Positions 1 to 62,313 of a stretch of DNA of 64,000 nt are shown here, piece after piece; within the stretch, counting starts at the first letter, position 1, and every line of letters starts with the position of its first letter. The DNA lies in the NCBI GenBank assembly GCA_043427975.1, contig JBHWTK010000067.1:16523-80522 (forward strand), written 5' to 3'. This DNA comes from Chloroflexia bacterium. Its GTDB lineage: Bacteria; Chloroflexota; Chloroflexia; Thermomicrobiales; UBA6265. The translations under genes were made by a program, and so were the position numbers. The notes beneath the pieces were generated by a model. The model ran no database searches. It was not told where the DNA came from and was given only the letters and a program-made list of their open reading frames with translations.

Positions 1-1600
1 CGTTGCGCGTGTTGATGGCTTCCTTGCGCTTGGCGTCTTCGGCGGCGTGCTCCTCAGCCTCCTGAACCATGCGCTTGACTTCATCCTCGCTCAGGCCGGA
101 GCTGCCGGCGATGGTGATCTTCTGTTCCTTGCCTGTGGCGGTGTCCTTGGCGGTGACGTTGAGGATGCCATTGGCGTCGATATCAAAGGTCACCTCAATC
201 TTCGGCACACCACGCGGTGCGGGCGGAATTCCATCGAGGATAAAGCGGCCGAGACTCTTGTTATCGGTGGCCATCGGGCGCTCACCCTGCAACACGTTGA
301 TCTCTACCTGCGGCTGGCTGTCGCTGGCCGTGGTGAATGTCTGGCTCTTGCGGGCCGGGATGGTGGTATTGCGCTCGATTAGCGGTGTCGCCACACCACC
401 AAGCGTCTCGATCGCCAGGGTAAGCGGCGTCACGTCCAGCAGCAGGATGTCCTTGACATCGCCGCCGAGCACACCACCCTGGATGGCGGCACCAAGCGCC
501 ACAACTTCGTCCGGGTTGATGCCCTTGTGCGGCTCCTTGCCGAAGAAGTCCTGCACGGTCTTCTGAACAATCGGCATGCGGGTCTGGCCACCAACGAGCA
601 GGGCTTCGTCCACCTCGCTCTTGCTGAGGCCGGCATCCTTGAGGGCCGATTCCATCGGGCCCTTGGTGCGGTTCACCAGGTCACTGGTGAGCGATTCCAG
701 CTTGGAGCGCGTGAGGGTGATATTCAGATGCTTCGGACCGCTGGCATCGGCCGTAATAAACGGCAGGTTGATATCGGTCTGCTGGGTGCTGGAAAGCTCG
801 ATCTTGGCCTTCTCGGCAGCTTCCTTCAGGCGCTGGAGCGCCATGCGGTCGTTGCGGAGGTCAACGCCTTCCTGCTTCTTGAACTCGTCGGCGAGCCAGT
901 TAATGATCACCTGGTCGAAGTCGTCACCACCCAGGTGGGTATCACCATTGGTGGCGAGCACCTGGAAGACGCCCTCGCTGAGGTCGAGGATGGAGATATC
1001 GTAGGTACCACCACCAAGGTCGTACACAGCGATCTTCTCATCCTTGTCCTGCTTCTCAAGGCCGTAGGCCAGGGCGGAAGCGGTGGGCTCGTTGATAATG
1101 CGCAGCACCTCAAGGCCAGCGATCCGGCCAGCATCCTTGGTGGCATCGCGCTGTGAGTTATCGAAGTACGCCGGTACGGTAATCACGGCCTTGTCCACGG
1201 TTTCACCGAGGTAGGCTTCCGCGTCCGCCTTCATCTTCTGCAGGATCATCGCGCTGACTTCCTGCGGGCTGTACCACTTGTCGCCCATCTTCACCTGCAC
1301 GTCGCCGTTCGGGGCGGCCTGCAGTGCGTACGGCACAAGTTCCTTGTCCTTGGCGATAGCAGGGTCGTTGAACTTGCGACCAATGAACCGCTTCACCGAG
1401 AAAATGGTGTTATCCGGGTTGGTTACCGCTTGCCGGCGGGCAAACCGCCCCACCAGGCGCTCGCCGGAGTTGGTGAGGGCCACGACCGAGGGCGTAAGTC
1501 GCTCGCCTTCGGCGTTGGGGATCACCACCGGCTCGCCACCTTCAATGGTGGCCATTACCGAGTTGGTTGTTCCGAGGTCAATACCGATTGTTCGTCCCAT
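1..1600 (-). CDS. dnaK: Molecular chaperone DnaK (Hsp70), N-terminal ~533 aa; C-terminus runs off the left window edge
   Basis: Absent from the ORF track because there is no stop in the window. Reverse complement from ATG at 1600-1598 reads [22 protein letters not shown]...[20 protein letters not shown]...[12 protein letters not shown]...[22 protein letters not shown] lies upstream. Follows grpE. Confidence 0.95.
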
Positions 1601-1649
1601 GTTGTCTCCTTTAGGTCTGTGTGGCTCACGCCACGTTTATTGAACGTGC

Positions 1650-2213
1650 TTACGCGTTGAACTCTTCGGGAGCGTTGCCGGTTTTCACCATGGCAGCACG
1701 CAGAAGGGTATCCCCCAGTTTGTAGCCCTTCTGGTACACCTCTACGACGTACTCGCCGCTGGTACCGGGCTCTACAGAAACTGCCTCGTGAATGGAGGGA
1801 TCGAATGCCGACCCCACTCCGCTCACTTCCTTCACACCAGCGCCCTCAAGCAACTGGTGGAATTTGGCCTGGATCATCTGGATTCCCTTGAACCAGCTAT
1901 CGTCGTGCTCGTTTTCCGGCACAGCCGCCATGGCCCGGTCCCAGTCATCGATAACGGGCAGGAACCGGCTAATGGCATTGGCAGTGAAGAGTTCCCCCAA
2001 CCGCAACTTCTCGGCATCGGTTCGCTTGCGATAGTTGATGAACTCTGCGCGGCTTCGCTGCAACTGGTCGAGGTATTCGTCCCGCTGGGCGACAAGCTTC
2101 TCGATCATCGAATCGGTATCATCGGACGTTTCACCGAACTCGCCTTCCAGCTCGTCGCCCTCCATATCATCCTCGAGGAATTCGTCATCGTTCCTTACGT
2201 CGTTATGCGTCAT
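1650..2213 (-). CDS. grpE: Nucleotide exchange factor GrpE
   Basis: 187-aa ORF with acidic N-terminus, coiled-coil RSRAEFINYRKRTDAEK and a GrpE C-terminal beta domain. Located between hrcA and dnaK. Confidence 0.95.
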   Translation of the reverse strand: MTHNDVRNDDEFLEDDMEGDELEGEFGETSDDTDSMIEKLVAQRDEYLDQLQRSRAEFINYRKRTDAEKLRLGELFTANAISRFLPVIDDWDRAMAAVPENEHDDSWFKGIQMIQAKFHQLLEGAGVKEVSGVGSAFDPSIHEAVSVEPGTSGEYVVEVYQKGYKLGDTLLRAAMVKTGNAPEEFNA

Positions 2214-2267
2214 TCAAACCTCTCCAATCGGCCGGGCCCGTGCCCAACCAGTACGAATTTTTCCTGT

Positions 2268-3314
2268 TTACGCGGAATACAAGTCGGCCATGAGGTCACT
2301 CATCAGCCGGGCCATGTACCGCACCGACGGGATACTGTGCCAGTAGCGCATGCGGGTTGGCCCAAGGACGCCCAAAATGCCCGTGACTTCGCCATCGACG
2401 CCATAGGTGGCAATTACAATGCCGAAGTTGCGCAGCGCCTGGGCGGGGTTCTCTTCGCCAATAAATACCTGCACATCGTTATCCGGGGTAAGCTGCGGAA
2501 GCAACTCTCCCAGGAATCCGGGTCCGGCCATAAGCTCCATCACCAGCTGGCCCTCGGCGCCCGCGAACTCCGGCTGGCGCAGCATTTTATCGATACCGCT
2601 ATGCCGTACGGGCATATCCTGGACCGAATCCATGGTGCGCAGCCCGCTGGCGATATGCTCCAACACAAACTGCACAACGCCCTGTGCGGTGGCGCTTATC
2701 GCCTCGATTTCCTGGCTGTTCAGTCCGCGTAATGCGCCAATCTGCTGGTCGGCAATACTGCTGAGCAGTGGCTGTTCCGCTTCCTCGGGAAGGTGCAGCA
2801 TCATCTGCCGAACCGCACTCTCCTGCGTCACCAGAATGAGCAACGCCAAACGCGGTTGCAGGGAAATCAGTTCGAAATGCCGCAACCGTGCCACGTGCGT
2901 TTTCGGTGCCGTCACAATGCTGGCCATACCCGAAGTACTGCTGAGGACGCTGGCGGCAAACTCCACCATGCTGTCCAGCTGGCCCTCGACCTGGCGGAAC
3001 TGATGGCGAATCATCACCTGGTCCGCTTGGGCCAACGACCGATTCGGCATCAGGTGGTGCACGTAGTACCGATATCCCTGGTCAGTCGGGATTCGTCCAC
3101 CAGAGGTATGTGGCTGGGCCACGTACCCCATGTGTTCCAGGGCAACCATCTCATTACGAATGGTCGCGCTGGAGATTGGTGCGCCGAACCGTGTCACCAA
3201 GGTTGCAGACCCCACGGGTTTCCCGGAATCCACATACTCGCGCACGAGAAGCTGCAGCAGCTTTTTGCGCCGCTCCGTCATCTCTGCCGGGCTATGTTGA
3301 ATCCGTTGGTCCAT
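2268..3314 (-). CDS. hrcA: Heat-inducible transcription repressor HrcA
   Basis: 348-aa ORF with N-terminal winged-helix RRKKLLQLLVREYVDSGKPVGSATL. First gene of hrcA-grpE-dnaK, with a CIRCE operator immediately upstream. Confidence 0.95.
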   Translation of the reverse strand: MDQRIQHSPAEMTERRKKLLQLLVREYVDSGKPVGSATLVTRFGAPISSATIRNEMVALEHMGYVAQPHTSGGRIPTDQGYRYYVHHLMPNRSLAQADQVMIRHQFRQVEGQLDSMVEFAASVLSSTSGMASIVTAPKTHVARLRHFELISLQPRLALLILVTQESAVRQMMLHLPEEAEQPLLSSIADQQIGALRGLNSQEIEAISATAQGVVQFVLEHIASGLRTMDSVQDMPVRHSGIDKMLRQPEFAGAEGQLVMELMAGPGFLGELLPQLTPDNDVQVFIGEENPAQALRNFGIVIATYGVDGEVTGILGVLGPTRMRYWHSIPSVRYMARLMSDLMADLYSA

Positions 3315-3332
3315 GGCATCGTCCTTTCGGTG

Positions 3333-3359
3333 TTAGCACTCGTTTATTGAGACTGCTAA
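3333..3359 (-). promoter_or_regulatory. CIRCE operator (HrcA binding site)
   Basis: TTAGCACTC-N9-GACTGCTAA on the plus strand, versus consensus TTAGCACTC-N9-GAGTGCTAA (one mismatch). Lies 19 nt upstream of the hrcA ATG. Confidence 0.85.
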
Positions 3360-3367
3360 CCAAATGG

Positions 3368-3397
3368 ATGATACAAGGTTGATACGGACCTTGTCAA
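3368..3397 (-). promoter_or_regulatory. Sigma-70-type promoter of the hrcA operon
   Basis: Minus strand reads TTGACA-N18-TATCAT, ending 8 nt upstream of CIRCE. Confidence 0.6.
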
Positions 3398-3399
3398 GG

Positions 3400-4080
3400 T
3401 TAAGACCGCTTTCCGAACAACCTTCCCATCAGGCTTTGCTTCTCTTCCGCCAGTGCTGCGTCGATGCGCGCACGGATAGCGGGATCCATTTTCTTACGGT
3501 TCGGGGTCTCTACCACCCGGGCGTTGGGCGGAAGCACATTGATTGCTTCGATAAGCCCAAGTCCCGACGATTTCGCGGCATCTGTCACCATTCTCATGGT
3601 GGCGAGCATCGGGTACGGGTCGGCTTCGGCCACGTGCAGACGTTTGGCCCAGAGCTCCAGGCGCAATTCAACCAGCTGGTCCAGCTTGTCAATCAGGTGC
3701 GGTGGAATCCAGGCTCCGGCCATGATGCCCCCGTGCAGGTCAAGCCGAATCGGCATACTGCCCACGAACACCGGCGGTACACCGTTATCCACAAACACGC
3801 GCGCCGGTGGTCGCATCAGCATGCCCACGCCACGATCAATAAGCGCTTCCCATGGCGTAAGGCCAAAGCCCTCGTAATGGAACGTTGGCTGGTCCTCGGC
3901 CATGGCCAGTGCCAGGCCCGTGGTGATGCGATTTGCCGAGAGCTCATCCAACGGCCGCTGGACCAATGCGCGCAAATCGTCTTCCCACCAGCTCCAGGGT
4001 GGCGTGCCCTCGCCACGTAGCGCCTGGACATAGCGTATGGCGGTCTCTGGCGAGTAGAGGTGCATGGTAATGAGCTGCAT
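3400..4080 (-). CDS. Hypothetical protein (226 aa), no recognised domain
   Basis: Long ORF with GC-rich third codon positions, and the only long ORF spanning this gap between neighbouring genes. I recognise no motifs. Confidence 0.55.
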   Translation of the reverse strand: MQLITMHLYSPETAIRYVQALRGEGTPPWSWWEDDLRALVQRPLDELSANRITTGLALAMAEDQPTFHYEGFGLTPWEALIDRGVGMLMRPPARVFVDNGVPPVFVGSMPIRLDLHGGIMAGAWIPPHLIDKLDQLVELRLELWAKRLHVAEADPYPMLATMRMVTDAAKSSGLGLIEAINVLPPNARVVETPNRKKMDPAIRARIDAALAEEKQSLMGRLFGKRS

Positions 4081-4122
4081 GGGTGATCCTTTCGTCGCGA
4101 TATATGCCTATCGTGCCATGAG

Positions 4123-4779
4123 GTGCCTGCCTGCGTCATACTTCAGCGCATGAAAACGATGATCGTCACCCTCCGGCTTTCTACCAACCTCGATGGACGC
4201 ACTCGCGAGCGCTGCCCCGATCTGGTGCTGTCTGTTGATGGCAACGAGGTTGCATCGGTGCGCAGCGATGTCGAGCAGCCGCACCTTCCAACCGGAGACG
4301 GTGAAATCGACCTTGTTGAATTCCAGGATGACGCGCTTAGCAGGGTGATGGATGAAGAGGCATGGATGGCCGAGCTGAAGCGCGTGGTTGCGCCAGGTGG
4401 CAACGTGCGCCTGACGCTGCCCGCCTCGGGCGCGCTGGCCTGGCTGGACACCATGAACCTGTACCGCTACATCGCCGATATCAGCAAGCGCGGCCATGCC
4501 CCGGATGCTGCCCTGCCCACCGGCTGGAATCGCCACTACTCGCCTGAGGATGTCACCCGGTTGCTGGCGGACGCAGGATTCGAGAACGTATCGATTCGCC
4601 GGAGTTGTTACGTGTCCGAAGTGATAGGGTTCCTGGGCAGCATGCTGTGGCGCAACTGGGTGCGGGGTGATCGACGCACCGAGTTAGAGGTTTTTCCCCG
4701 TTTTGCCCGGCGCACACCGGGTGAACGGCGTTTCCCGATTGGAACAACCTGGAGCGTTTCCGCCCGCAAACCTCGCTAA
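4123..4779 (+). CDS. Class I methyltransferase-fold protein with degenerate or absent SAM motif I
   Basis: Post-motif-I region is recognisable (LVLSVDGNE..., EIDLVEF..., ELKRVVAPGGNVRLTLP). The N-terminus (MIVTLRLSTNLDG) lacks a GxGxG. Start uncertain (4123/4150/4159). Confidence 0.45.
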   Translation: MPACVILQRMKTMIVTLRLSTNLDGRTRERCPDLVLSVDGNEVASVRSDVEQPHLPTGDGEIDLVEFQDDALSRVMDEEAWMAELKRVVAPGGNVRLTLPASGALAWLDTMNLYRYIADISKRGHAPDAALPTGWNRHYSPEDVTRLLADAGFENVSIRRSCYVSEVIGFLGSMLWRNWVRGDRRTELEVFPRFARRTPGERRFPIGTTWSVSARKPR

Positions 4780-4831
4780 CGCCGCAGGGGCGGCCACCGG
4801 TTGGTGACCGCCCCTGCCTGCTCCTGTGATG

Positions 4832-6295
4832 TCAGCGAGCCACTGCACCCTTGAGCGAATCTGGCGCCGGGATGTGGACATCGACCTTCTTGATGTACTT
4901 CTCAACAAGGTCCGCTCGGCCTGCCACGCCAAGTTCGCGCATTACCAGCTCGAAACGAGGCTGCAATTCGGCGTAGATAGCCTGCTTTGTTTCATCCGGC
5001 AAGCTCCACATTTCCTTCTTGAACGGGCCGAAGCCGTTCTTACGGGTCTTGTAGTAGAACTGCACATCGCTCATGCCCTCCTTGCGCTCCGATGCATGCG
5101 CTTCGGAAAGGTGGGCGTACACAGCGTCCCTCAGTTCGGCGGGGAAGTGTTCGCTATCGTAGTAGGCGTTCTGGTAGGCGGTGGCGAGGTGGACTTCCAC
5201 CGCGTCCACTTCTGCAAACTTACCAAACGCCTCTTCGGGCAGGGTGCTGGCACCATGCTGTACCGCGCCGCCCATGCCGTACTTCTTCGCCGCCTGGCTT
5301 AGCTTGCCGAGCGTCTCGAAATCGACCGCGACATCCGCAATGGAACCATCCGGCAACACCACGCCACCGTGGCTGGTGCCTGTTTGCACGCTGATTTTGC
5401 TCACAGGGATCAAGTTTTCGCCCAGCTTGGCCAGTTCTTCAGCATACCCTTCGTAGAAGGCATCCAGATCCTCAACGGTGCTGTTGTCGTTGCCGATCTC
5501 ACCTATTTCCGCGCCCACGGAGATCGTGAAGCCTTCCGGCTCATGTTGCCGGATAGCGGCAGTGAGTTCCGCCGTGTGGCGGCTGTTGAGCGCCTGCTGC
5601 TCCTTGAGGGTGGGTTTGGAAAGATCGACCAGCGTGCTGCAATCGATATCGATATTGCCGTAGCCGGCAGCGATGGCCGCGATCGCATGCTTGCGCACTG
5701 CTTCGATTTCGGCCTCAGGATCGGCTTCGTACTTCTTGCGGTTGGCCTGGTAATGGTCGCCTTGCACCATCACCGGACCCTCCCAGCCGTACTTCACCGC
5801 TGCGGCGAAGATGCTGGTAGCGTATTCAGAAGGCGACTGGTTCGTGTATCCATTTTCCGACTTCGCAAGCTCGAACAGCATTTGCTTGGTACCGGTGGCC
5901 TGGGCCGCCCGGAAAATGGTGCCGGCAAACTCCATCACATCACCACGGACATTGATCGCCGGTGTGGTGATGTTATGGTACTCGCCGCGCGCGGAGGCCA
6001 TATACAGGTCCTGGATCGACGCAGGGAACGCACCGGTAGCAACAGCAATGCGTCGAACCAGCCAGCGGGCCGCTTGCTGCGGATCGCCCTCGCCGAAGGC
6101 ACTCGTCCAGGCGAGTTGCTCTATCAGGTCGGACCGCACGGCATCGAGATCGAGAATTTCGATGTCGTCGCCGGTCACCCGTACGACGTCTTCCAGCGCG
6201 CCAACCAGCGACTCCATAGATTGGTGAATCGTTCGGGTCATGTACTGTCGAACCTTTCTCCAGGCATCATCGCCTGCTCTCTCCGGGGCACTCAT
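4832..6295 (-). CDS. Class II fructose/tagatose-bisphosphate aldolase family protein (long form)
   Basis: 487-aa ORF with class II aldolase hallmarks: VMVQGDH, GNIDIDCS, VQTGTSHGG, AVQHGASTLP. Confidence 0.8.
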   Translation of the reverse strand: MSAPERAGDDAWRKVRQYMTRTIHQSMESLVGALEDVVRVTGDDIEILDLDAVRSDLIEQLAWTSAFGEGDPQQAARWLVRRIAVATGAFPASIQDLYMASARGEYHNITTPAINVRGDVMEFAGTIFRAAQATGTKQMLFELAKSENGYTNQSPSEYATSIFAAAVKYGWEGPVMVQGDHYQANRKKYEADPEAEIEAVRKHAIAAIAAGYGNIDIDCSTLVDLSKPTLKEQQALNSRHTAELTAAIRQHEPEGFTISVGAEIGEIGNDNSTVEDLDAFYEGYAEELAKLGENLIPVSKISVQTGTSHGGVVLPDGSIADVAVDFETLGKLSQAAKKYGMGGAVQHGASTLPEEAFGKFAEVDAVEVHLATAYQNAYYDSEHFPAELRDAVYAHLSEAHASERKEGMSDVQFYYKTRKNGFGPFKKEMWSLPDETKQAIYAELQPRFELVMRELGVAGRADLVEKYIKKVDVHIPAPDSLKGAVAR

Positions 6296-6368
6296 GCCAG
6301 CTATGGCATGATGGCCGCAATATCCTTACCAAAGCATGGTACCGCACAGGTATTGCAGAAACGTGTCA

Positions 6369-6411
6369 GGAAAACAGCACATGCCCCGGATGTCGAAACA
6401 CCCGGGGCATG
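6369..6411 (-). terminator. Intrinsic terminator after the cupredoxin gene
   Basis: Minus-strand RNA has a 10-bp stem CAUGCCCCGG/CCGGGGCAUG followed by GCUGUUUUCC, about 20 nt after the stop at 6430. Confidence 0.6.
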
Positions 6412-6429
6412 CACCACTCGTTCTATCCG

Positions 6430-8820
6430 TTATTTGACGGTAAACGTGCCCACCATGCCGCTCTGCTTGTGGCCCGGTACCGAGCAATAGAACTCGACCG
6501 ATGTACCAGACTCGGCATCGTCGGGAATCACCACATCACCGGTCTGGTCATTGTTCAGGAGTTCGGTAGCAATACCCCACTCATCCACAACCAGGTCGTG
6601 CTGGGCAAATCCCACGTTGTGCAGCGTTACGGTTTGACCAGGCGAAACCTCAACTTCATTCGGGCTGAAGCTGAAGTCATCATGCGCCTCGATCGTGATC
6701 GCTTCGCCCGATCCGGAATCCTCGCCGCTGCCAGTCGCCGATGGCGATGACTGCGGGGATGCAACCGGGGTTGCGGATCCACCAGGCGCCACGATGGTGA
6801 TCTTGCCGACCATCCCCTGGTTCTGGGCTTCGGTCAGGTTCGACTTGAACTCGATCGTCTTGCCGACCTCCGCATCCTCAGGGACGGTGAACTCGCCAAA
6901 GCTGCCGTTGGGCACGCTCTTGATCATGGGCGTGAGGGCGTTTTCGTCCCACTCCTCTGAAGTAAGGCCCATCGACATGCCGGTTTCGTTCTGGAAGGTG
7001 ATCACACCACCCGGGGCAATCTCGAACTCGGCAGGCTGGAACTCCCACTGGGTACCAACTACGGTAACAGCCTGCGGCGTGTTCTCCGTGCCACCCGTTT
7101 CAGAACCGGAACCCGCCTCGCCGGCCGCCGCCGTGGCCTCGCCTTCGGCAGCCGGAGCCGCGGCAGACGAGCCGCCCTCAACGACGGTGAAGGTACCAAC
7201 CATGCCGCTCTGCTTGTGGCCCGGCACGGAGCAGTAGAACTCCACCGAGGTACCGACTTCTGCGTCGTCCGGAATGACCACGTCACCAGTCTGGTCGTTG
7301 TTGAGCAACTCGGTGGCAATACCCCATTCGTCCACAACCAGGTCATGCTGGGCAAAACCGACATTGTGGAGGGTCACGGTTTGACCCGGGGCTACCTCAA
7401 CCTCGTTCGGGCTGAAGCTAAAGTCGTCGTGCGCCTCGATCATGATCGCTTCGCCGGAGCCACTCCCGGCGGCGGCGGGAGCCTCTTCTTCGGCAGCAGC
7501 GGTCGCTTCGTCCTCGCCTTCTTCAGCCGGAGCTGCAGCCGAAGAACCACCTTCAACAACCGTAAAGGTGCCTTCCATGCCGCTCTGGCGGTGGCCAGGA
7601 ACCGAGCAGTAGAAGGTGACGGAACTACCGACTTCGGCATCCTCGGGGATCACCACATCGCCGGTCTGCTCGTTGTTCAGGAGTTCGGTAGCGATGCCCC
7701 ATTCATCAACCACGAGGTCGTGCTGGGCAAAGCCCTTGTTATGCAGGGTGACCGTCTGGCCTGGAGCCACTTCAACTTCGTTCGGACTGAAGCTGAAGTC
7801 ATCGTGCGCTTCGATGGTGATTGGCTCGCTGGAGCCGCTACCAGCGGCCGCAGGAGCTTCTTCCTCTGTAGCAGCAGTCGCTTCGTCCTCAGTTTCACCT
7901 GCAGGAGCGGCCGCCGCAGAAGAGCCGGCCTCGACAACCGTAAAGGTGCCTTCCATGCCGCTCTGGCGGTGACCGGGGACGGAGCAGTAGAAGGTAACGG
8001 AGCTACCGACTTCGGCATCCTCGGGGATCACCACATCACCAGTCTGCTCGTTATTGAGCAGCTCGGTCCTGATTCCCCACTCGTCTACGACGAGGTCGTG
8101 CTGGGCAAAGCCCTTGTTATGCAGTGTGACTGTCTGGCCGGGCGAAACCTCGACCTCGTTCGGGCTGAAGCTGAAATCATCATGTGCTTCGATCACGACG
8201 GCCTCAGCGGCACCACCGGCACTGCCTTCCTCGGCGGGAGCTTCCTCTTCAGCAGGGGCTTCCTCACCGGCTGGGGCTGCAGCCGCAGATGCCTCAACCA
8301 CCGTAAAGGTGCCTTCCATACCGCTCTGGCGGTGACCCGGGACGGAGCAGTAGAACGTTGCCGTGCTACCGATTTCCGCGTCTTCCGGGATGGTTATGTC
8401 GCCGGATTCTTCGCTGTTGAGCAGCTCTGTCGCGATTCCCCACTCGTCCACCACAAGGTCGTGCTGGGCGAAACCCTTGTTCTGGAGGGTAACCGTCTGG
8501 CCGGGCGAAACCTCGACCTCATTTGGCGTGAAACTGAAGTCGTCGTGCGCTTCAATCACAATCGCCTCGGCTGAAGCGGCACCGGTATCGCCACCACCGT
8601 CGCCTGATCCAGTTCCTTCAGTGGGCGTATCGGAGCCCTGTTGGGCACCGGGGGTGGAGGTGCGTGGGGCGATCGTTGGTGGTGCGCCCGGAACGTCCGG
8701 GATCTGGGTTGGATTAAGAGCCTCTTCGCTCAGCGGTTCGTTGCCACAGGCAACCAGTAACACGCTTGTTGCGGTTACCGATGTTACCGCCACAAATCGA
8801 CGGCGATTCATACGATTCAT
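6430..8820 (-). CDS. Tat-signal lipoprotein with six tandem cupredoxin modules (five with full type-1 copper ligand sets, one degenerate)
   Basis: Start reassigned to ATG 8820 (AGGAGG SD 10 nt upstream). Signal peptide MNRMNRRRFVAV...LLVAC has a twin-Arg motif plus lipobox L-V-A-C. Each module carries FAQH...FYCSVPGH(R/K)QSGM, giving His, Cys, His, Met ligands. Confidence 0.85.
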   Translation of the reverse strand: MNRMNRRRFVAVTSVTATSVLLVACGNEPLSEEALNPTQIPDVPGAPPTIAPRTSTPGAQQGSDTPTEGTGSGDGGGDTGAASAEAIVIEAHDDFSFTPNEVEVSPGQTVTLQNKGFAQHDLVVDEWGIATELLNSEESGDITIPEDAEIGSTATFYCSVPGHRQSGMEGTFTVVEASAAAAPAGEEAPAEEEAPAEEGSAGGAAEAVVIEAHDDFSFSPNEVEVSPGQTVTLHNKGFAQHDLVVDEWGIRTELLNNEQTGDVVIPEDAEVGSSVTFYCSVPGHRQSGMEGTFTVVEAGSSAAAAPAGETEDEATAATEEEAPAAAGSGSSEPITIEAHDDFSFSPNEVEVAPGQTVTLHNKGFAQHDLVVDEWGIATELLNNEQTGDVVIPEDAEVGSSVTFYCSVPGHRQSGMEGTFTVVEGGSSAAAPAEEGEDEATAAAEEEAPAAAGSGSGEAIMIEAHDDFSFSPNEVEVAPGQTVTLHNVGFAQHDLVVDEWGIATELLNNDQTGDVVIPDDAEVGTSVEFYCSVPGHKQSGMVGTFTVVEGGSSAAAPAAEGEATAAAGEAGSGSETGGTENTPQAVTVVGTQWEFQPAEFEIAPGGVITFQNETGMSMGLTSEEWDENALTPMIKSVPNGSFGEFTVPEDAEVGKTIEFKSNLTEAQNQGMVGKITIVAPGGSATPVASPQSSPSATGSGEDSGSGEAITIEAHDDFSFSPNEVEVSPGQTVTLHNVGFAQHDLVVDEWGIATELLNNDQTGDVVIPDDAESGTSVEFYCSVPGHKQSGMVGTFTVK
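6433..8571 (-). repeat. In-frame tandem array of ~93-aa cupredoxin modules separated by 27-33 aa Ala/Glu/Pro/Ser/Gly linkers
   Basis: Module coordinates: D1 8293-8571, D2 7930-8208, D3 7552-7830, D4 7177-7455, D5 (degenerate) 6790-7077, D6 6433-6708. D2~D3 and D4~D6 are nearly identical as protein. Confidence 0.9.
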
Positions 8821-35773: not shown

Positions 35774-36556
35774 ATGGACCAGCAACCATTCGCGCTCGCC
35801 AAGGCGGCATTCCGGGCCATGCCTGCCGTAACTCTGGTGCGCCAGAACGTGGTGTGGCTGGGTATGACGCTGATCGCCATGTTGAGCGCGCCAGGAGCGC
35901 ATTCCGGTTGGTCGCTCTTTTGGTTGGTGGTCGCGTCGCTTCTCTCGGCAGCATGCCTCACCGAAGTCCATCTTGCCCGCGCTATCGAACATCCTCGCAC
36001 CGTCATAACAACGCTGGGTGCCGCTGCACTGAGCGCCCTGGTTGCGCTCGTCCTCACAATGGCGCTCAACCCGCTCTCCGGTCTGATGCTAATCTTGCTC
36101 CTCGGCATGCTGGCTTACACCGGCAAGGAGCGGCCGTTTGTGACCGCGGCGCTCACCGTGGCCCTGGTGCCGTGGTGGGTATGGATGGCACTGGACCAGT
36201 GGCACTGGCAGCTGCTGGTGTTGCTGCCCCTGGTCGGCATGGGCCTGATCGCGGTGAGCCACCTGCTGGATACACACGCCTGGCCGGACGATGTTAAGCG
36301 CATCATGCCTGCGCGGGCGCACCGAGCGGCCGCCTGGCTGATCATCGCGCTTTCCGGTATTGGGCTGATGCTGCTCGGCCTGATGGCCGACGCCCGCCGA
36401 CCGTTCCTCGCGTTGGCGGGCATTGTCCTGGCGCTTTCCGTGCCGCTGGAAGCCGGGTTCGGGTCTACCAGTCGCCGTTCCGCGCAGCAAAGCATCCGCA
36501 TCGTCGTGAGTGCCTACCTGATCGCCGTAGCCTGCTGGCTCGTCGCAATCGCATGA
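35774..36556 (+). CDS. Hypothetical polytopic membrane protein (260 aa)
   Basis: Seven or eight hydrophobic helices. ATGA overlap with the next ORF. Confidence 0.55.
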   Translation: MDQQPFALAKAAFRAMPAVTLVRQNVVWLGMTLIAMLSAPGAHSGWSLFWLVVASLLSAACLTEVHLARAIEHPRTVITTLGAAALSALVALVLTMALNPLSGLMLILLLGMLAYTGKERPFVTAALTVALVPWWVWMALDQWHWQLLVLLPLVGMGLIAVSHLLDTHAWPDDVKRIMPARAHRAAAWLIIALSGIGLMLLGLMADARRPFLALAGIVLALSVPLEAGFGSTSRRSAQQSIRIVVSAYLIAVACWLVAIA

Positions 36557-37203
36557 CACCGTACTCGCCTATCCCACGCATTGTCCCCGGCACTGCGCAC
36601 CGCCAGCTCATCCATCGCATCCTCCGGTCCGACGTTCCGCCCGAAACACAGCGCATCGACCTGGTGACCACATCGTTCAAGCGTGTGAGCATCATCGACA
36701 GCGGAGAACCCCCTGCCGAGCGCACTGCCGAGGGCGATACAGCCATCCACGTGCTATGGCAGCATCAGGAGCACGGTGCCACGATCGAGATCGGCACCGA
36801 TCGTTATGCCATAGCGCCAGGTGATACCTCCATGATCCCCGCCGGAGACAGCTGGCGAATGCCTCCGCACACGCTGTTTATCGAGGTGGCGGTACGGAGG
36901 TCATCGCTCGCGCTGCCGATTCCTCCAACACATGGCGATTACCACTTCACAGGTCACAATCGTGAATCGCGCTACCCCGCCATGGGAACCGTGCAGCTCT
37001 CGCGCTGGAAGCTGAGCGAGAACCTTGCGATGCCAGCTCCGGACGCGGAACGCGTGCTTATCGGCCTCTACAACGACATCGCCCTCCTGCATCCCGGAGG
37101 CATTACGATGCTGCGAAAAGGCGAAACCAGTGTGACCCGCCCCGCAACCGGAGGGATCACACTGGTGCCGAATGGACTCTCGTACATGCTGGTTATCGAC
37201 TAA
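36553..37203 (+). CDS. Hypothetical protein, cupin-like
   Basis: Beta-rich segments (YAIAPGDTSMIPAGDSWRM; ITMLRKGETSV) resemble a cupin barrel. Weak call. Confidence 0.45.
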   Translation: MTPYSPIPRIVPGTAHRQLIHRILRSDVPPETQRIDLVTTSFKRVSIIDSGEPPAERTAEGDTAIHVLWQHQEHGATIEIGTDRYAIAPGDTSMIPAGDSWRMPPHTLFIEVAVRRSSLALPIPPTHGDYHFTGHNRESRYPAMGTVQLSRWKLSENLAMPAPDAERVLIGLYNDIALLHPGGITMLRKGETSVTRPATGGITLVPNGLSYMLVID

Positions 37204-38036: not shown

Positions 38037-38933
38037 CTATCCAACTCCTGCCCCAACCTCTACCGGCGAGGCCTGCTCTTCTTCCTGCTCCACCTTGCCG
38101 TTCTCCGATCCCTTCAGTTCCTCCGGGTCGAACTCCGCTTCATCCAGGCTGGTGCCGGTTGCCGCCATAAAGACCTCTTCCAGCGAATCTGATCCGTACT
38201 GCGCCTTCAGTTCGTCGGCGGTGCCCAAAGCGATCAGTTCACCATTCAGCAGGATGCCGATGCGGTCGCACAGCTCCTCTGCCTCGCCCATATCGTGCGT
38301 GCAGAGCAGGATCGACGAATCGTGCCCCTTGCGGATGTGCTGAACTAGCTTCTGCACATCCTTCTTGCTCCGCGGATCCAGACCCGTGGTCGGCTCGTCG
38401 AGCAGCATCAGCATCGGGCTGGTGAGCAGTGCGCGCGCCAGCGCAATCTTCTGCTGCATACCGCGGCTGAGGTGCTCCATCGGCTCGCCAATGCGCTTCA
38501 CATCGAACCCGATACTCTCCAGGATGTTGCGGATCTGCGGACGGCTCTCGCTATCGGTGACGCCGTACATCTTGGCGCCAAACAGCAGGTTCTCCAGCGA
38601 ACTCAGCTTCTTGAAGAAGCTCGCCTCCACGCTCACGCGGTTGATAAACCGCTGCACCGTGCGCGGATGTTTCACCGCGTCGATATCAAACACCTTCACC
38701 TCGCCGGCATCCGGCAGTGTGAGCGTGCTGATGACACGCACCAGGGTGCTCTTGCCCGAACCGTTCGGCCCCAGGATGCCGACAACCTCGCCGCGGTGAA
38801 TCGTCAGCGAAACACCCTTCAGCGCGTACGCGTATTCACCGCGCTTCTTCTTGAACTTCTTTTCCACATTTGTCATCACCAGGGCTTCGACGCCTGGCTG
38901 TAACTTGTTGATCACCTTTGATCCTTCCTCCAT
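38037..38933 (-). CDS. ABC transporter ATP-binding protein (ABC-2/DrrA-like subfamily)
   Basis: Walker A GPNGSGKST, signature LSRGMQQK, Walker B MLLDEPTTGLD, H-loop CTHD. Confidence 0.88.
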   Translation of the reverse strand: MEEGSKVINKLQPGVEALVMTNVEKKFKKKRGEYAYALKGVSLTIHRGEVVGILGPNGSGKSTLVRVISTLTLPDAGEVKVFDIDAVKHPRTVQRFINRVSVEASFFKKLSSLENLLFGAKMYGVTDSESRPQIRNILESIGFDVKRIGEPMEHLSRGMQQKIALARALLTSPMLMLLDEPTTGLDPRSKKDVQKLVQHIRKGHDSSILLCTHDMGEAEELCDRIGILLNGELIALGTADELKAQYGSDSLEEVFMAATGTSLDEAEFDPEELKGSENGKVEQEEEQASPVEVGAGVG

Positions 38934-38991
38934 ACCGCGCTACTTCCTGGAACGGGCATTCGCGCTTCCCACCTGTGGCGTCCCCTAAAGG

Positions 38992-39023
38992 CACAAAAAA
39001 ACCCTAACGAATGCTCGCCAGGG
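38992..39023 (-). terminator. Intrinsic terminator inside the ABC-2 exporter leader (candidate attenuator)
   Basis: Minus RNA reads CCCUGGCGA-GCAU-UCGUUAGGG (9 bp, 2 G.U) followed by UUUUUUUGUG, about 58 nt upstream of the ATPase ATG. Confidence 0.7.
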
Positions 39024-39055
39024 GTCAGTGTGCTCGTTCGGTTGTGCGCTCGGAC

Positions 39056-39145
39056 CTAGATCGCAACCTCCACCGAATGGACACACTGCTCCCGTGCTGT
39101 GCTGCCGATAGGCAGTTGACGGCATCGGGTGAATCCGTGTGTCAT
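39056..39145 (-). CDS. Candidate leader peptide uORF (29 codons)
   Basis: GAGGU lies 9 nt upstream of the ATG. Sequence is MTHGFTRCRQLPIGSTAREQCVHSVEVAI. It contains the shared motif GGGAGCAGUGUG in frame as (R)EQC(V). Confidence 0.35.
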   Translation of the reverse strand: MTHGFTRCRQLPIGSTAREQCVHSVEVAI

Positions 39146-39200
39146 CAGGTTCCGACCTCGTACGTGTACGCAAGTGGTGCGCCGGTTGCGAACCTCTCGC

Positions 39201-39229
39201 AGAATACGGAATACGAATTGAAAAGTCAA
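39201..39229 (-). promoter_or_regulatory. Candidate promoter of the ABC-2 exporter leader
   Basis: Minus strand reads TTGACT-N17-TATTCT, starting right at the DUF1801 stop codon. Confidence 0.5.
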
Positions 39230-39658
39230 CTAGTCCGGATGCTCCTTCTTGATGGCGATATAGGAATCCCGGATTAGCCAACGGAGCACGGACTCGTCCA
39301 CCTCCGCCAGCTTCCTGATGTAGAGGCAAGCGTTGCCGGTTTTGAATGGGCCCAGTTGCATAAGCTGTTCCTGGTAGCGGTCCTCGTAGCCACCGATAAG
39401 GTAGACCACCAGCTGCGCCTTACGCGGACTGAATGCGGCTGCTGGCGCATCGCCTTCCCGGCCGGATTCGTATTTGTAATGGTATGTGCCGAAGCCGACG
39501 ATGCTCGGGCCATACATGTACGGCTCCTCGCCGGTTTCCTCGCGCATGATATCGACCAGCCGATAGGCATCGGCGCGGCGGACATCGTTCTCCACAGCGG
39601 CGATAAACGCCATTGGGTCGACCTCGGTTGGCTGGGTTTTGTTCACCGGTTTGGCCAT
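39230..39658 (-). CDS. DUF1801 (YdhG-like) domain protein
   Basis: 142-aa ORF. The pattern VDPMAFIAAVEND.RRADAYRLVDIMREETGEEPYMYGPSIVGFGTYHYKYESGREGD fits the family. Confidence 0.7.
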   Translation of the reverse strand: MAKPVNKTQPTEVDPMAFIAAVENDVRRADAYRLVDIMREETGEEPYMYGPSIVGFGTYHYKYESGREGDAPAAAFSPRKAQLVVYLIGGYEDRYQEQLMQLGPFKTGNACLYIRKLAEVDESVLRWLIRDSYIAIKKEHPD

Positions 39659-60588: not shown

Positions 60589-60613
60589 GAGCCCGGGAAT
60601 AAAACCCGGGCTC
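60589..60613. terminator. Bidirectional hairpin terminator between convergent genes
   Basis: Perfect 9-bp stem GAGCCCGGG/CCCGGGCTC with loop AATAAAA. Abuts the ABC-F stop codon. Confidence 0.6.
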
Positions 60614-62313
60614 TACTTTTCCCGTTTCCTCACCGGTTCCGATGCGGCGGCGGGGTGGCGCAGGCCGAGGGTGAGCGGGGTGCCTTTCTCCGCGTTCTCG
60701 ACGGCATAGGTGTAGCCGCCCGGATAATCGCGCACGATGCCGTCCTCAATCGCGAGGATGCGGTTGCAGACCTTGTCCATGAAATAGCGATCATGCGAGA
60801 TGCTGATGATGGTGCCCTCGAACGCCAGCAGCGCTTCTTCAAGCTTCTCGACACTGGCGAGGTCGAGGTTATTGGTCGGTTCGTCCAGCACCAGCAGGTT
60901 GGCACCGCTCAGCATCATCAGTGCGATCTGCAGCCGGGCCCGTTCCCCACCGCTCAGGTTCTTCACCTGGTTCATCGCGTCAACACGATCAAAGCCCATA
61001 CCCACCAGCGCGCTGAGCGCCTGCTGTTCATTGAGCGCCTTCACCTTGCGCACGAGTTCTAGCGGCTGGGAATTGCCATCCAGCGATGCCTGCATCTGGT
61101 CGTACCACGCCATCTGGATACTCGCGCCGATGCCAATCCGGCCGGAGGAAGGCGCGAGTTCGCCGGTGAGGCACTTCATCAGGCTGGTTTTACCGGCACC
61201 GTTCGGCCCGATGATGCCTACCCGCTCTCCATGCCGCACCAGCACATCGAACGGTTGCAGCACAGTGCGGTCGCCATAGCGGATGCTGACGTTGCTGCCC
61301 GTGACCACGTTCGTGGATCCCCGTTCCGCCTGGAAATCGATATTGATGTTGCGGCGCTGCATTTGCGGCCATGGCTGGGCATCGAGCCGGGCGCGTTCCT
61401 CCGCCATTCGGTTGCGTTGCTGCTCGGCGCGGGTAGCGAACTTCGGATTCTGCCGCGCCCACTGGGTCAGTTCCTCGGCGCAGGCCTTCAGCTTCAGGTA
61501 TTCGCGTTCGGCCAGCTCGCGGAGTTCCAGTTCACGTTCAAGCCGATCCCGCTTCTGCTGCTGGTAGGCGCTGTAGTTGCCGGTGTACCGGCGGATGCGG
61601 CCATCCTCCAGTTCAACGATCGAGTTGGCGACCCGGTCGATCATGTAGCGGTCGTGCGAGATCATGCACACCGCGCCGCGATACTGCGTGTTGAGCCAAT
61701 CCTCCAGCCAGGCGCGGGCATCGACATCGAAGTGGTTATCTGGCTCGTCCAGCAGCAGCACATCCGGCGGGTCCAGCAGGAAGCGGGCGACATCCACCAG
61801 CTTCCGTTCGCCACCGGAGAGCGTGCCGATTGATTGGTCCCAGCGGTGTTCCGGAATATGCAATTCGCCGAGCACCTGCTGCAACTGATCGGTGGCATCG
61901 TTGCCGGCGAGTGCGTCGAGCCGATCCAGCAAGGCCGCCTGGGTGTCCAGCAGCGCTGCCATCTCGTCGTCAGTCATCGGCTGGCCAAACCGTTCCTCAA
62001 TTTCCAGGAGCTGGTATTCCACGCTCTCGGAATCGCCGATTGCCTCGCCGAGCACTTCGCGAACCGTCTTGTGGGCCGGGAGTGTCGATTCCTGCTGCAG
62101 GTATCCGATGCTGATGCCATTGGCGTGCGTGATTGCTCCAGACTGCGGGTGCAACTCCTTCGTCAGCAGGCGAAAGAGGGTGGACTTGCCCGTGCCATTC
62201 TCTCCGATCAACGCGAGGCGGTCGCCAGACTGGATGGTGAATGAAAGTCCCTGGAAAAGCTGGTTACCGCCGTGGGCATAGGCGATATCCGCAGCCTGAA
62301 TGAGAAGTACCAT
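60613..62313 (-). CDS. ABC-F family ATPase (two NBDs, no TM domain; ribosome-associated type)
   Basis: 566 aa. Two Walker A motifs (GENGTGKST, GPNGAGKTS), two signatures (LSGGERK, LSGGERAR) and a charged interdomain linker (QQQKRDRLERELELRELAEREYLKLK...). Confidence 0.9.
   Translation of the reverse strand: MVLLIQAADIAYAHGGNQLFQGLSFTIQSGDRLALIGENGTGKSTLFRLLTKELHPQSGAITHANGISIGYLQQESTLPAHKTVREVLGEAIGDSESVEYQLLEIEERFGQPMTDDEMAALLDTQAALLDRLDALAGNDATDQLQQVLGELHIPEHRWDQSIGTLSGGERKLVDVARFLLDPPDVLLLDEPDNHFDVDARAWLEDWLNTQYRGAVCMISHDRYMIDRVANSIVELEDGRIRRYTGNYSAYQQQKRDRLERELELRELAEREYLKLKACAEELTQWARQNPKFATRAEQQRNRMAEERARLDAQPWPQMQRRNINIDFQAERGSTNVVTGSNVSIRYGDRTVLQPFDVLVRHGERVGIIGPNGAGKTSLMKCLTGELAPSSGRIGIGASIQMAWYDQMQASLDGNSQPLELVRKVKALNEQQALSALVGMGFDRVDAMNQVKNLSGGERARLQIALMMLSGANLLVLDEPTNNLDLASVEKLEEALLAFEGTIISISHDRYFMDKVCNRILAIEDGIVRDYPGGYTYAVENAEKGTPLTLGLRHPAAASEPVRKREK

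Follow-up and report, generated by a model that had tools for sequence, protein, structure and literature searches.

Anatomy of the leader upstream of the ABC-2 operon

We analyzed a 64,000-nt stretch, hereafter the window, of contig JBHWTK010000067.1 from a Chloroflexia bacterium of the Thermomicrobiales (assembly GCA_043427975.1). On its minus strand, an ABC-2 ATPase gene and its permease partner are preceded by a leader. Its parts are, in order, a promoter, a hairpin, a Shine-Dalgarno (SD) sequence, a short open reading frame (sORF), a spacer, and a terminator, after which the ABC-2 ATPase gene begins (39232-38915). The coordinates of these features are collected in Table 1, together with those of a second leader of the same family found elsewhere in the window. 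As set out below, the conservation of this leader, its linkage to resistance-type genes, and a covarying alternative fold point to a transcription attenuator.

The -35 box of the promoter lies directly 3' of the TAG stop codon of the DUF1801 gene (39232-39230, minus strand), and the spacer from the sORF stop to the terminator stem measures 32 nt. An earlier reading of this DNA (the original prediction) had described a TTGACT-N17-TATTCT promoter, an SD-preceded 29-codon upstream open reading frame (uORF) at 39145-39056, and a strong intrinsic terminator with a GCAU loop and a U7 tract. All three are present where it placed them, and a consensus scan picked up both the promoter (39229-39201) and the terminator (39023-38995). 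The same scan found no promoter-like site between the leader terminator and the ATPase start codon. The ATPase had been taken to start about 58 nt past the terminator, a distance that we revise to about 79 nt from the end of the U-tract. Its start is most likely GTG 38915 and not ATG 38933, because the SD sequence GGAGGAAGGA precedes it and because alignments with orthologs start at residue 2 of the protein read from there. No Rfam match was obtained for the whole window at the gathering threshold, for 38800-39400 at E values up to 10, or for 14 related loci.

Table 1. Positions of the leader, its predicted folds, the adjoining genes, and the sister leader in the window
Feature	Position	Strand	Description
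DUF1801 gene	39230-39658	minus	Named from Pfam
Promoter	39229-39201	minus	Predicted by consensus scan; -35 TTGACT 39229-39224, 17-nt spacer, -10 TATTCT 39206-39201
Predicted transcription start	~39194	minus	Inferred from promoter position
5'-terminal hairpin	39194-39176	minus	GGUUCGC-AACCG-GCGCACC; directly 3' of the inferred transcription start; seen by eye in the alignment
SD sequence of leader sORF	39159-39156	minus	GAGG, upstream of ATG 39145
Leader sORF	39145-39056	minus	29 codons + TAG; ATG 39145, TAG 39058-39056; peptide MTHGFTRCRQLPIGSTAREQCVHSVEVAI
5' hairpin domain	39143-39080	minus	Candidate anti-antiterminator or pause hairpin; centroid fold of whole leader and segment minimum free energy (MFE)
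Pro-12 codon	39112-39110	minus	CCU; 9 codons before the core Cys codon, 18 before the stop
Predicted antiterminator	39097-39015	minus	Long interrupted hairpin; segment MFE -35.1 kcal/mol
Intrinsic terminator	39023-39002	minus	9-bp stem CCCUGGCGA / UCGUUAGGG, loop GCAU; then U7 39001-38995
ABC-2 ATPase gene	38915-38037	minus	GTG 38915 (alternative ATG 38933); Pfam ABC_tran
ABC-2 permease gene	38036-37200	minus	Pfam ABC2_membrane
Paralogous leader	62492-62344	minus	Upstream of ABC-F gene 60613-62313
Sister sORF	62492-62412	minus	26 codons, MQFFMKATIAVSPRTATIWEQCAWLM; core GGGAGCAGTGTG at 62437-62426, identical to the ABC-2 leader core
Sister terminator stem	62367-62344	minus	Followed by a T-run

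Conservation of the leader and linkage to the exporter genes

Relatives of the ATPase were sought in one genome per species, which yielded 80 loci, all from Thermomicrobiales (Chloroflexota) or Rubrobacter (Actinomycetota). The leader set comprises 28 unique Thermomicrobiales leaders and 30 unique Rubrobacter leaders, each upstream of an orthologous ABC-2 ATPase/permease pair. In the four closest loci (L001, L002, L003, and L025), the leader could be aligned at the nucleotide level. There, the -35 GTTGAC, the -10 TAYTCT, and their 17-nt spacing are kept, as are the 5' hairpin, the core GGGAGCAGTGTG, GGAGGT.GCGAT, CACAAC, and the terminator. The stem of the 5'-terminal hairpin at 39194-39176 shows a compensatory change, with CGC:GCG in the window, L001, and L003 and CC:GG in L002 and L025, and this hairpin may serve as a 5' stabilizer.

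Across the 58 leaders, the ORF starts with ATG in 55, spans 26-34 codons with a mode of 28-29, and is preceded by an SD-like 4-mer in 47. The position of the stop is fixed, and in the closest relatives TAG and TGA alternate there, as expected under selection for a stop codon. In 54/58 leaders, a terminator could be identified, its stem beginning 24-44 nt past the sORF stop, mostly at 28-35 nt. Examples of the sORF family among the upstream regions are MSNYYFQMQTPLGATAWEKCACLPEVAT, MSSTMYILRFPIAGLPGEECALLTTVPD, and MNRGFYRISPPLGDNLWEECALSIREPD, and an example from Rubrobacter is MHIRRTNIGIPVFGGEVRPEVREVAMRT. The Thermomicrobiales and Rubrobacter cores are alike in nucleotides and are read in different frames.

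The original prediction had raised the possibility that the hairpin merely ends a purM-mglA-DUF1801 transcript. DUF1801 is upstream in only 5 loci, in one of which it is split off by an insertion, and the leader accompanies the ABC-2 pair where those genes are missing. Because the leader follows the ABC-2 pair regardless of what lies upstream, its hairpin is not simply the terminator of the purM-mglA-DUF1801 transcript. Lack of conservation, another doubt voiced there, can also be set aside, as the element is present across an order and its layout recurs in a second phylum. In L002, the insertion between DUF1801 and the leader is about 1.4 kb long and its last ORF ends in a transposase/integrase-like sequence (..FYNHKRLHQALGYQTPASH..); promoter and leader are intact.

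A pattern scan of metagenome contigs added 17 further copies, belonging to the commonest subtype. An ABC-2 ATPase relative lies just downstream in 12/17 of these, with 4 others having too little downstream DNA fetched to show one, and the permease also follows in the 5 contigs that are long enough.

Competing folds and covariation

The 5' strand of the predicted antiterminator consists of the last 12 codons (18-29) of the sORF, with a core GGGAGCAGUGUGU (39093-39081) and an inner UUCGGU (39077-39072). The 3' strand is made of the spacer (ACCGAA 39043-39038; GCACACUG 39033-39026) and CCC 39024-39022. In the window, GGG 39093-91 would pair with this CCC, CAGUGUGU (39088-81) with GCACACUG, and UUCGGU with ACCGAA as an inner helix, leaving the stop codon near the apex. 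Because CCC 39024-22 also belongs to the 5' arm of the terminator, antiterminator and terminator are mutually exclusive. An alternative helix sharing the terminator CCC had been proposed before, in which GGGAGCAGUGUG (39093-39082) is complementary to CACACUGACCCC (39032-39021); it now appears as the base of the longer antiterminator at 39097-39015, and compensatory changes accompany it.

Folding from the core to the 5' arm of the terminator gave one long interrupted hairpin in every Thermomicrobiales leader. The inner helix occurs in compensatory variants, UUCGGU:ACCGAA in the window, CUGUUUAC:GUAAACAG in L003, and CAUUGCG:CGCAAUG in L025, and the outer helix varies likewise, with GCGC:GCGC in L004 and GUGC:GCAC in L011. 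MAFFT with RNAalifold on 24 antiterminator segments did not recover the long helix, which a global alignment misses because the 3' strand shifts register between subgroups. In an alignment-free test, the 5' strand of each Thermomicrobiales leader was paired with its own 3' strand and with those of the other 26 leaders. Cognate duplexes averaged -36.7 kcal/mol compared with -29.2 kcal/mol for non-cognate ones, none of 20000 permutations (0/20000) was as low, and the duplex had a z-score of -3.4 against shuffled 3' strands.

A covariance model built from 10 sequences recovered the element in 26 places. In the model alignment, which is fitted to the structure and leans towards it, the outer helix is 85.9% paired compared with 42-62% for slid controls, and 5 pairs are changed on both sides. 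In the same structure-fitted alignment, covariation is seen between the third base of the Cys codon and the base it pairs with on the 3' strand (CG 9, UA 7, UG 6). Against dinucleotide shuffles, the antiterminator gave z-scores of -2.0 in the window and -3.1 on average, and the terminator gave a mean of -3.9.

A further structure, the 5' hairpin domain, would pair GACACAC 39143-39137 with GUGUGUC 39086-39080 and CCCG 39129-39126 with CGGG 39094-39091, and has CUGCC-UAUC-GGCAG (39115-39102) as its apical part. The centroid fold of the whole leader shows it together with the terminator, and its z-score in the window is -2.58. As modeled by folding, this hairpin (39143-39080) is moderately supported and is a candidate anti-antiterminator.

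Selection on RNA and on peptide

Codon-position entropies were computed over 23 distinct leaders. In the N-terminal codons of the sORF, every codon position is variable. Codons -12 (G/W/R) and -10 (E/K/Q) have a variable first base, and with it a variable amino acid, while bases 2-3 are fixed. Judged from these alignments, the RNA strand GG-GAG-nAG-UGY-GCC is the main conserved object, and the peptide sequence is under little constraint.

One codon, Pro-12, departs from this pattern. Among Thermomicrobiales-type leaders, CCN is found at this position in 26/28 when they are anchored on the Cys codon and in 24/28 when they are anchored on the stop, with all four synonymous codons in use; at the stop-anchored position, 25/30 Rubrobacter leaders have CCN. 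The two C of the codon and a GG downstream form the closing pairs of a small local hairpin, and the lower stem of this hairpin covaries (CUGCC:GGCAG, CACC:GGUG, GUUGCC:GGCAAC, CACCG:CGGUG). Pro-12 was considered as proof of peptide-level selection and is not decisive, as its two C also pair in the local hairpin; its conservation could reflect selection for proline or for RNA pairing. A macrolide-type +x+ arrest motif was also considered as a family feature and was rejected: the window has R7-C8-R9, and the motif is not kept across the family.

Two further motifs were noted around the stop codon. In the largest subgroup (group B, e.g., L004 3770-3780, and the 17 metagenome loci), the stop-codon surround GCCUGACUGAC hardly varies; it contains UGA in two reading frames. 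A CA-rich motif, CACAAC, occurs 10-20 nt past the stop region in most leaders, including the window (39046-39041). The pairing model alone explains neither.

A paralogous leader precedes an ABC-F gene

The window holds a sister leader, 23 kb from the first, in front of an ABC-F gene and with its own promoter-like site. The core 14-mer has just 2 occurrences in the window, each inside a leader. With 419.9 bits for NCBIfam NF000355 (ribosomal protection-like ABC-F), the ABC-F protein is above the cut-off of 380. Leaders of this kind also precede ABC-F genes in L012 (leader 859-936) and L095, and in both loci (L012, ~860-4700; L095, ~2000-7250), the leader-bearing ABC-F gene stands immediately upstream of the leader-bearing ABC-2 pair. 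This adjacency suggests that ABC-F and ABC-2 are functionally linked.

A model for regulation and its alternatives

Anatomy, conservation, linkage to ABC-2 and ABC-F genes, and antiterminator covariation were established in this analysis. The leader has an ORF with a start codon and SD sequence, a terminator before the first structural gene, and an antiterminator that excludes the terminator and overlaps sequence that a ribosome would occupy. We consider it likely that the leader acts as a ribosome-mediated (leader-peptide) transcription attenuator and thereby controls the DrrAB-like ABC-2 exporter operon.

In such a scheme, transcripts would begin at the 39229-39201 promoter or read in from the upstream DUF1801 operon. 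During smooth translation of the sORF, the ribosome would occupy or melt the 5' strand of the antiterminator, so that the terminator forms and transcription stops at ~38995. If no ribosome were loaded, the 5' hairpin (39143-39080) would sequester the same strand, again leading to termination. A ribosome that stalled within the first 12-13 codons, no later than the conserved Pro, would hold the 5' half of the upstream hairpin; standing short of GGGAG (39093), it would allow the antiterminator to form and the ATPase and permease genes to be transcribed. Toeprinting places the front of a ribosome such that, with a given codon in the P site, it encloses ~15 nt of mRNA downstream of the first base of that codon. 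If Pro-12 (39112) occupied the P site, the ribosome would reach to ~39097, just before GGG 39093, and Pro-12 would be the last codon at which a stall both covers the 5' half of the upstream hairpin and keeps the antiterminator strand accessible. Promoter use, sORF translation, ribosome positions, and the inducer are what we infer in this scheme. The most likely inducing signal is translation stress in general or an antibiotic that targets the ribosome, which we favor because the same leader family precedes a resistance-like ABC-F gene.

Several results weigh against attenuation as described. The SD sequence of the window sORF lies 10 nt from the ATG, which is fairly distant. In the 10-kb region, the consensus scan gave 2 promoter matches compared with 3.2 expected from shuffled sequence, and 9 terminator matches compared with 6.3, which is not above chance; we take promoter and terminator as real because they are conserved and not because of match counts. 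The 5' hairpin has a z-score of only -1.29 averaged over 27 leaders, and its duplex does not outperform composition-matched shuffles (z = -0.25). In Rubrobacter, the antiterminator duplex reaches -25.2 kcal/mol for cognate and -24.7 kcal/mol for non-cognate strands (z = -1.1), and covariation is not shown there because the sequences are too uniform. A Rubrobacter antiterminator is weakly supported, and for this genus we claim only the layout of sORF plus terminator. No arrest motif is conserved across the leader family, so any naming of the inducer is only a guess. Finally, the best NCBIfam families, drrA for the ATPase (223.6 bits, cut-off 312) and drrB for the permease (49.6 bits, cut-off 223), score below their cut-offs, and a search of solved structures gave no hint of the exporter substrate.

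A more specific version of the attenuator would make the ~28-residue leader a dedicated nascent-chain/mRNA sensor of one particular ribosome-targeting compound, duplicated to put ABC-F and the DrrAB-like exporter under one signal. This would amount to a two-gene resistance regulon without a protein regulator, in Thermomicrobiales and, in diverged form, in Rubrobacter. The proposed mark of such a sensor is the conserved Pro nine codons before the W/G-E-E/Q/K-C core. We regard this version as speculative and rather unlikely.

The RNA-level character of the conservation also invites a reading in which the ORF is incidental and the hairpins answer a small molecule or an RNA-binding protein. The fixed bases 2-3 at codons -12 and -10, where the amino acid changes, fit such a switch, as do the apparently unpaired and conserved apical motifs (CACAAC past the stop, and GCCUGACUGAC in the larger subgroup) and the nucleotide likeness of Thermomicrobiales and Rubrobacter cores in different frames. 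An incidental ORF, however, would leave unexplained why 55/58 leaders from two phyla retain an ATG with an SD at a distance of 26-34 codons from a stop of fixed position, with TAG/TGA switching. The antiterminator, moreover, is simply an interrupted hairpin in which neither a junction nor a pocket is conserved, and there is no Rfam match even at E = 10. We hold a switch of this kind to be quite improbable. We think it very unlikely that the hairpin is a plain, unregulated terminator that ends the purM-mglA-DUF1801 transcript or damps read-through, with the sORF and alternative helix having no sensing role. In its favor, terminator-like sites are no rarer than chance, and neither sequence nor consensus scan revealed a terminator for the DUF1801 gene before the leader, so that upstream transcripts must also meet the leader hairpin and stop there. 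However, terminator, sORF, and antiterminator are kept together with ABC-2 in loci that have no DUF1801, mglA, or purM, and a simple terminator would have no need of covarying antiterminator strands.

The nearly invariant Pro codon and the invariant Cys codon, both at fixed positions, could instead betray an attenuator for a single amino acid or tRNA, such as one sensing proline or cysteine supply in the manner of the trp/his or mycobacterial poly-Cys leaders; the whiB7 uORF shows that leaders of this type can read amino-acid starvation (PMC10274678). The sORF, however, contains no run of repeated codons, and the genes it would regulate are an exporter and an ABC-F factor rather than biosynthetic ones. 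Its Cys codon lies inside the 5' strand of the antiterminator, where a stalled ribosome would favor termination, and covariation of the Cys third base with the 3' strand points to an RNA constraint. All of this makes amino-acid sensing highly improbable. Least credible to us is a functional small peptide, be it a bacteriocin, a signal, or the precursor of a ribosomally synthesized and post-translationally modified peptide (RiPP), that is exported by the ABC-2 transporter, with the hairpin setting the ratio of peptide to transporter. A conserved, Cys-containing ORF of 26-34 residues just before an exporter gene, and separated from it by a terminator, has the look of such an arrangement. Yet the same leader family stands before ABC-F genes, which encode soluble ribosome factors, and on the strength of these paralogous leaders the RiPP/bacteriocin reading was rejected. 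In addition, the N-terminal half of the peptide is free at all codon positions, the conserved part is explained by RNA pairing, and no modification enzyme is encoded nearby, the neighbors being DUF1801, an MglA-like GTPase, PurM, and two convergent ORFs without a family.

Variant upstream regions and neighboring genes

Four Thermomicrobiales loci (L023, L026, L028, and L032) are without the leader and have a different conserved region ~400 nt upstream of the ABC-2 ATPase. This consists of TTGACTTTCGG, a hairpin GCAGGG-UCCU-CCCUGC, and GGGAAGGAAGGTG, followed by a longer ORF, and could be a different kind of leader serving the same operon. L030 and L033 have a 49-codon variant of the leader ORF (MERYLF..RPRWEETARLRP..) with a related core, TGGGAGGAGACTGCC, and then a terminator. 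In the Rubrobacter loci L042, L043, L044, and L052, the 3' half of the leader ORF is tandemly duplicated (..PVFGGDVRPEPRLLGLTNSVIGAFGGEVRPKVRAVAMRT). Between the leader terminator and the ATPase gene, Rubrobacter loci (e.g., L044, L050, and L063) and also L029, L034, and L041 have at least one conserved small ORF of 70-90 codons. These ORFs end in ..EREETWRVVWERLEAR.. in Rubrobacter and begin with ..PE.I.LIHR.M...EL.R.. in some Thermomicrobiales, and are absent from the window.

Besides the genes in Table 1, Pfam named an Arf/MglA-like GTPase, PurM, and HflX among the neighbors. Downstream of the permease gene, two convergent plus-strand ORFs of 260 and 216 aa (35774-37203) matched no Pfam or NCBIfam family; they are conserved neighbors of the ABC-2 pair in several loci (L001, L002, L011, and L025).

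Comparison with known attenuators

We found no published description of this leader in the literature searched. The trp, his, and leu leaders of Enterobacteria follow a three-structure logic (1:2, 2:3, 3:4) that is read by the position of the leading ribosome. The leader described here would share that logic. It differs from them in having no runs of regulatory codons, in preceding non-biosynthetic genes, and in placing the 5' strand of the antiterminator inside the ORF rather than past its stop, and Rfam models of amino-acid operon leaders do not match it.

The original prediction had likened the leader to that of the Bacillus subtilis bmrCD genes. In bmrBCD, a leader ORF and alternative antiterminator and terminator structures precede an ABC exporter operon, and read-through is induced when ribosome-targeting antibiotics slow translation of the leader; bmrB has 53 codons, its terminator lies inside the coding region, and the role of a predicted anti-antiterminator is unclear (Reilman et al. 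2014, PMC4191407). The combination of leader ORF, alternative structures, and downstream ABC exporter operon is the same in both, and the analogy holds as a functional comparison. It does not hold as homology, since ORF length, terminator position, and transporter type differ. Here, the ORF has 29 codons, the terminator lies 32 nt past its stop, and the genes are an ABC-2/DrrAB-like pair, whereas BmrCD is a heterodimeric exporter of type I (ABC_membrane), and there is no sequence relationship. None of the marks of a bmrB-type leader (a terminator within the ORF, 53 codons, a type I exporter) is found here.

The whiB7/wblC uORF of Actinobacteria is likewise followed by a Rho-independent terminator. 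As outlined in PMC10274678 and in the account of Lee et al. 2022 given by PMC12421871, its efficient translation leads to termination, and antibiotics or amino-acid starvation lead to antitermination. The whiB7 leader differs in controlling a transcription factor and in having an alanine-rich uORF of widely variable length and sequence; here, the length is held tightly at ~28 codons and the 3' half of the sORF is conserved, because it forms the antiterminator strand. Leader-peptide attenuation is also the established route of induction for antibiotic-resistance (ARE) ABC-F genes, with attenuators described for vmlR, vga(A), lmrC, msrD, and are5sc/tiaA (PMC12421871). These share with our leader a uORF, a premature terminator, and an antiterminator in the 5' untranslated region, and the ABC-F gene in the window itself carries a paralogue of the leader. 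Their uORFs are usually very short (e.g., MLV or MVGDDDISG), and the ribosomes that read them stall on or close to the start codon (PMC12421871), whereas the present ones have 26-34 codons and belong to a leader family shared with a membrane exporter. On sequence evidence, the leader is well supported as a conserved cis-regulatory element that would be functionally of the experimentally established bmrBCD/whiB7/ARE ABC-F type and that falls in no described family.

The alignment and covariance model could serve to annotate the leader in genomes and metagenomes. For the organisms concerned, the finding predicts exporter control in Chloroflexota (Thermomicrobiales) and Rubrobacter, groups in which almost no gene regulation has been studied, and it would extend attenuation by leader peptides of the antibiotic type to ABC-2 (DrrAB-like) exporters. 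The shared leader suggests that ABC-F and the exporter act against the same translation inhibitor, which would provide a handle on both the compound and the substrate of the exporter.

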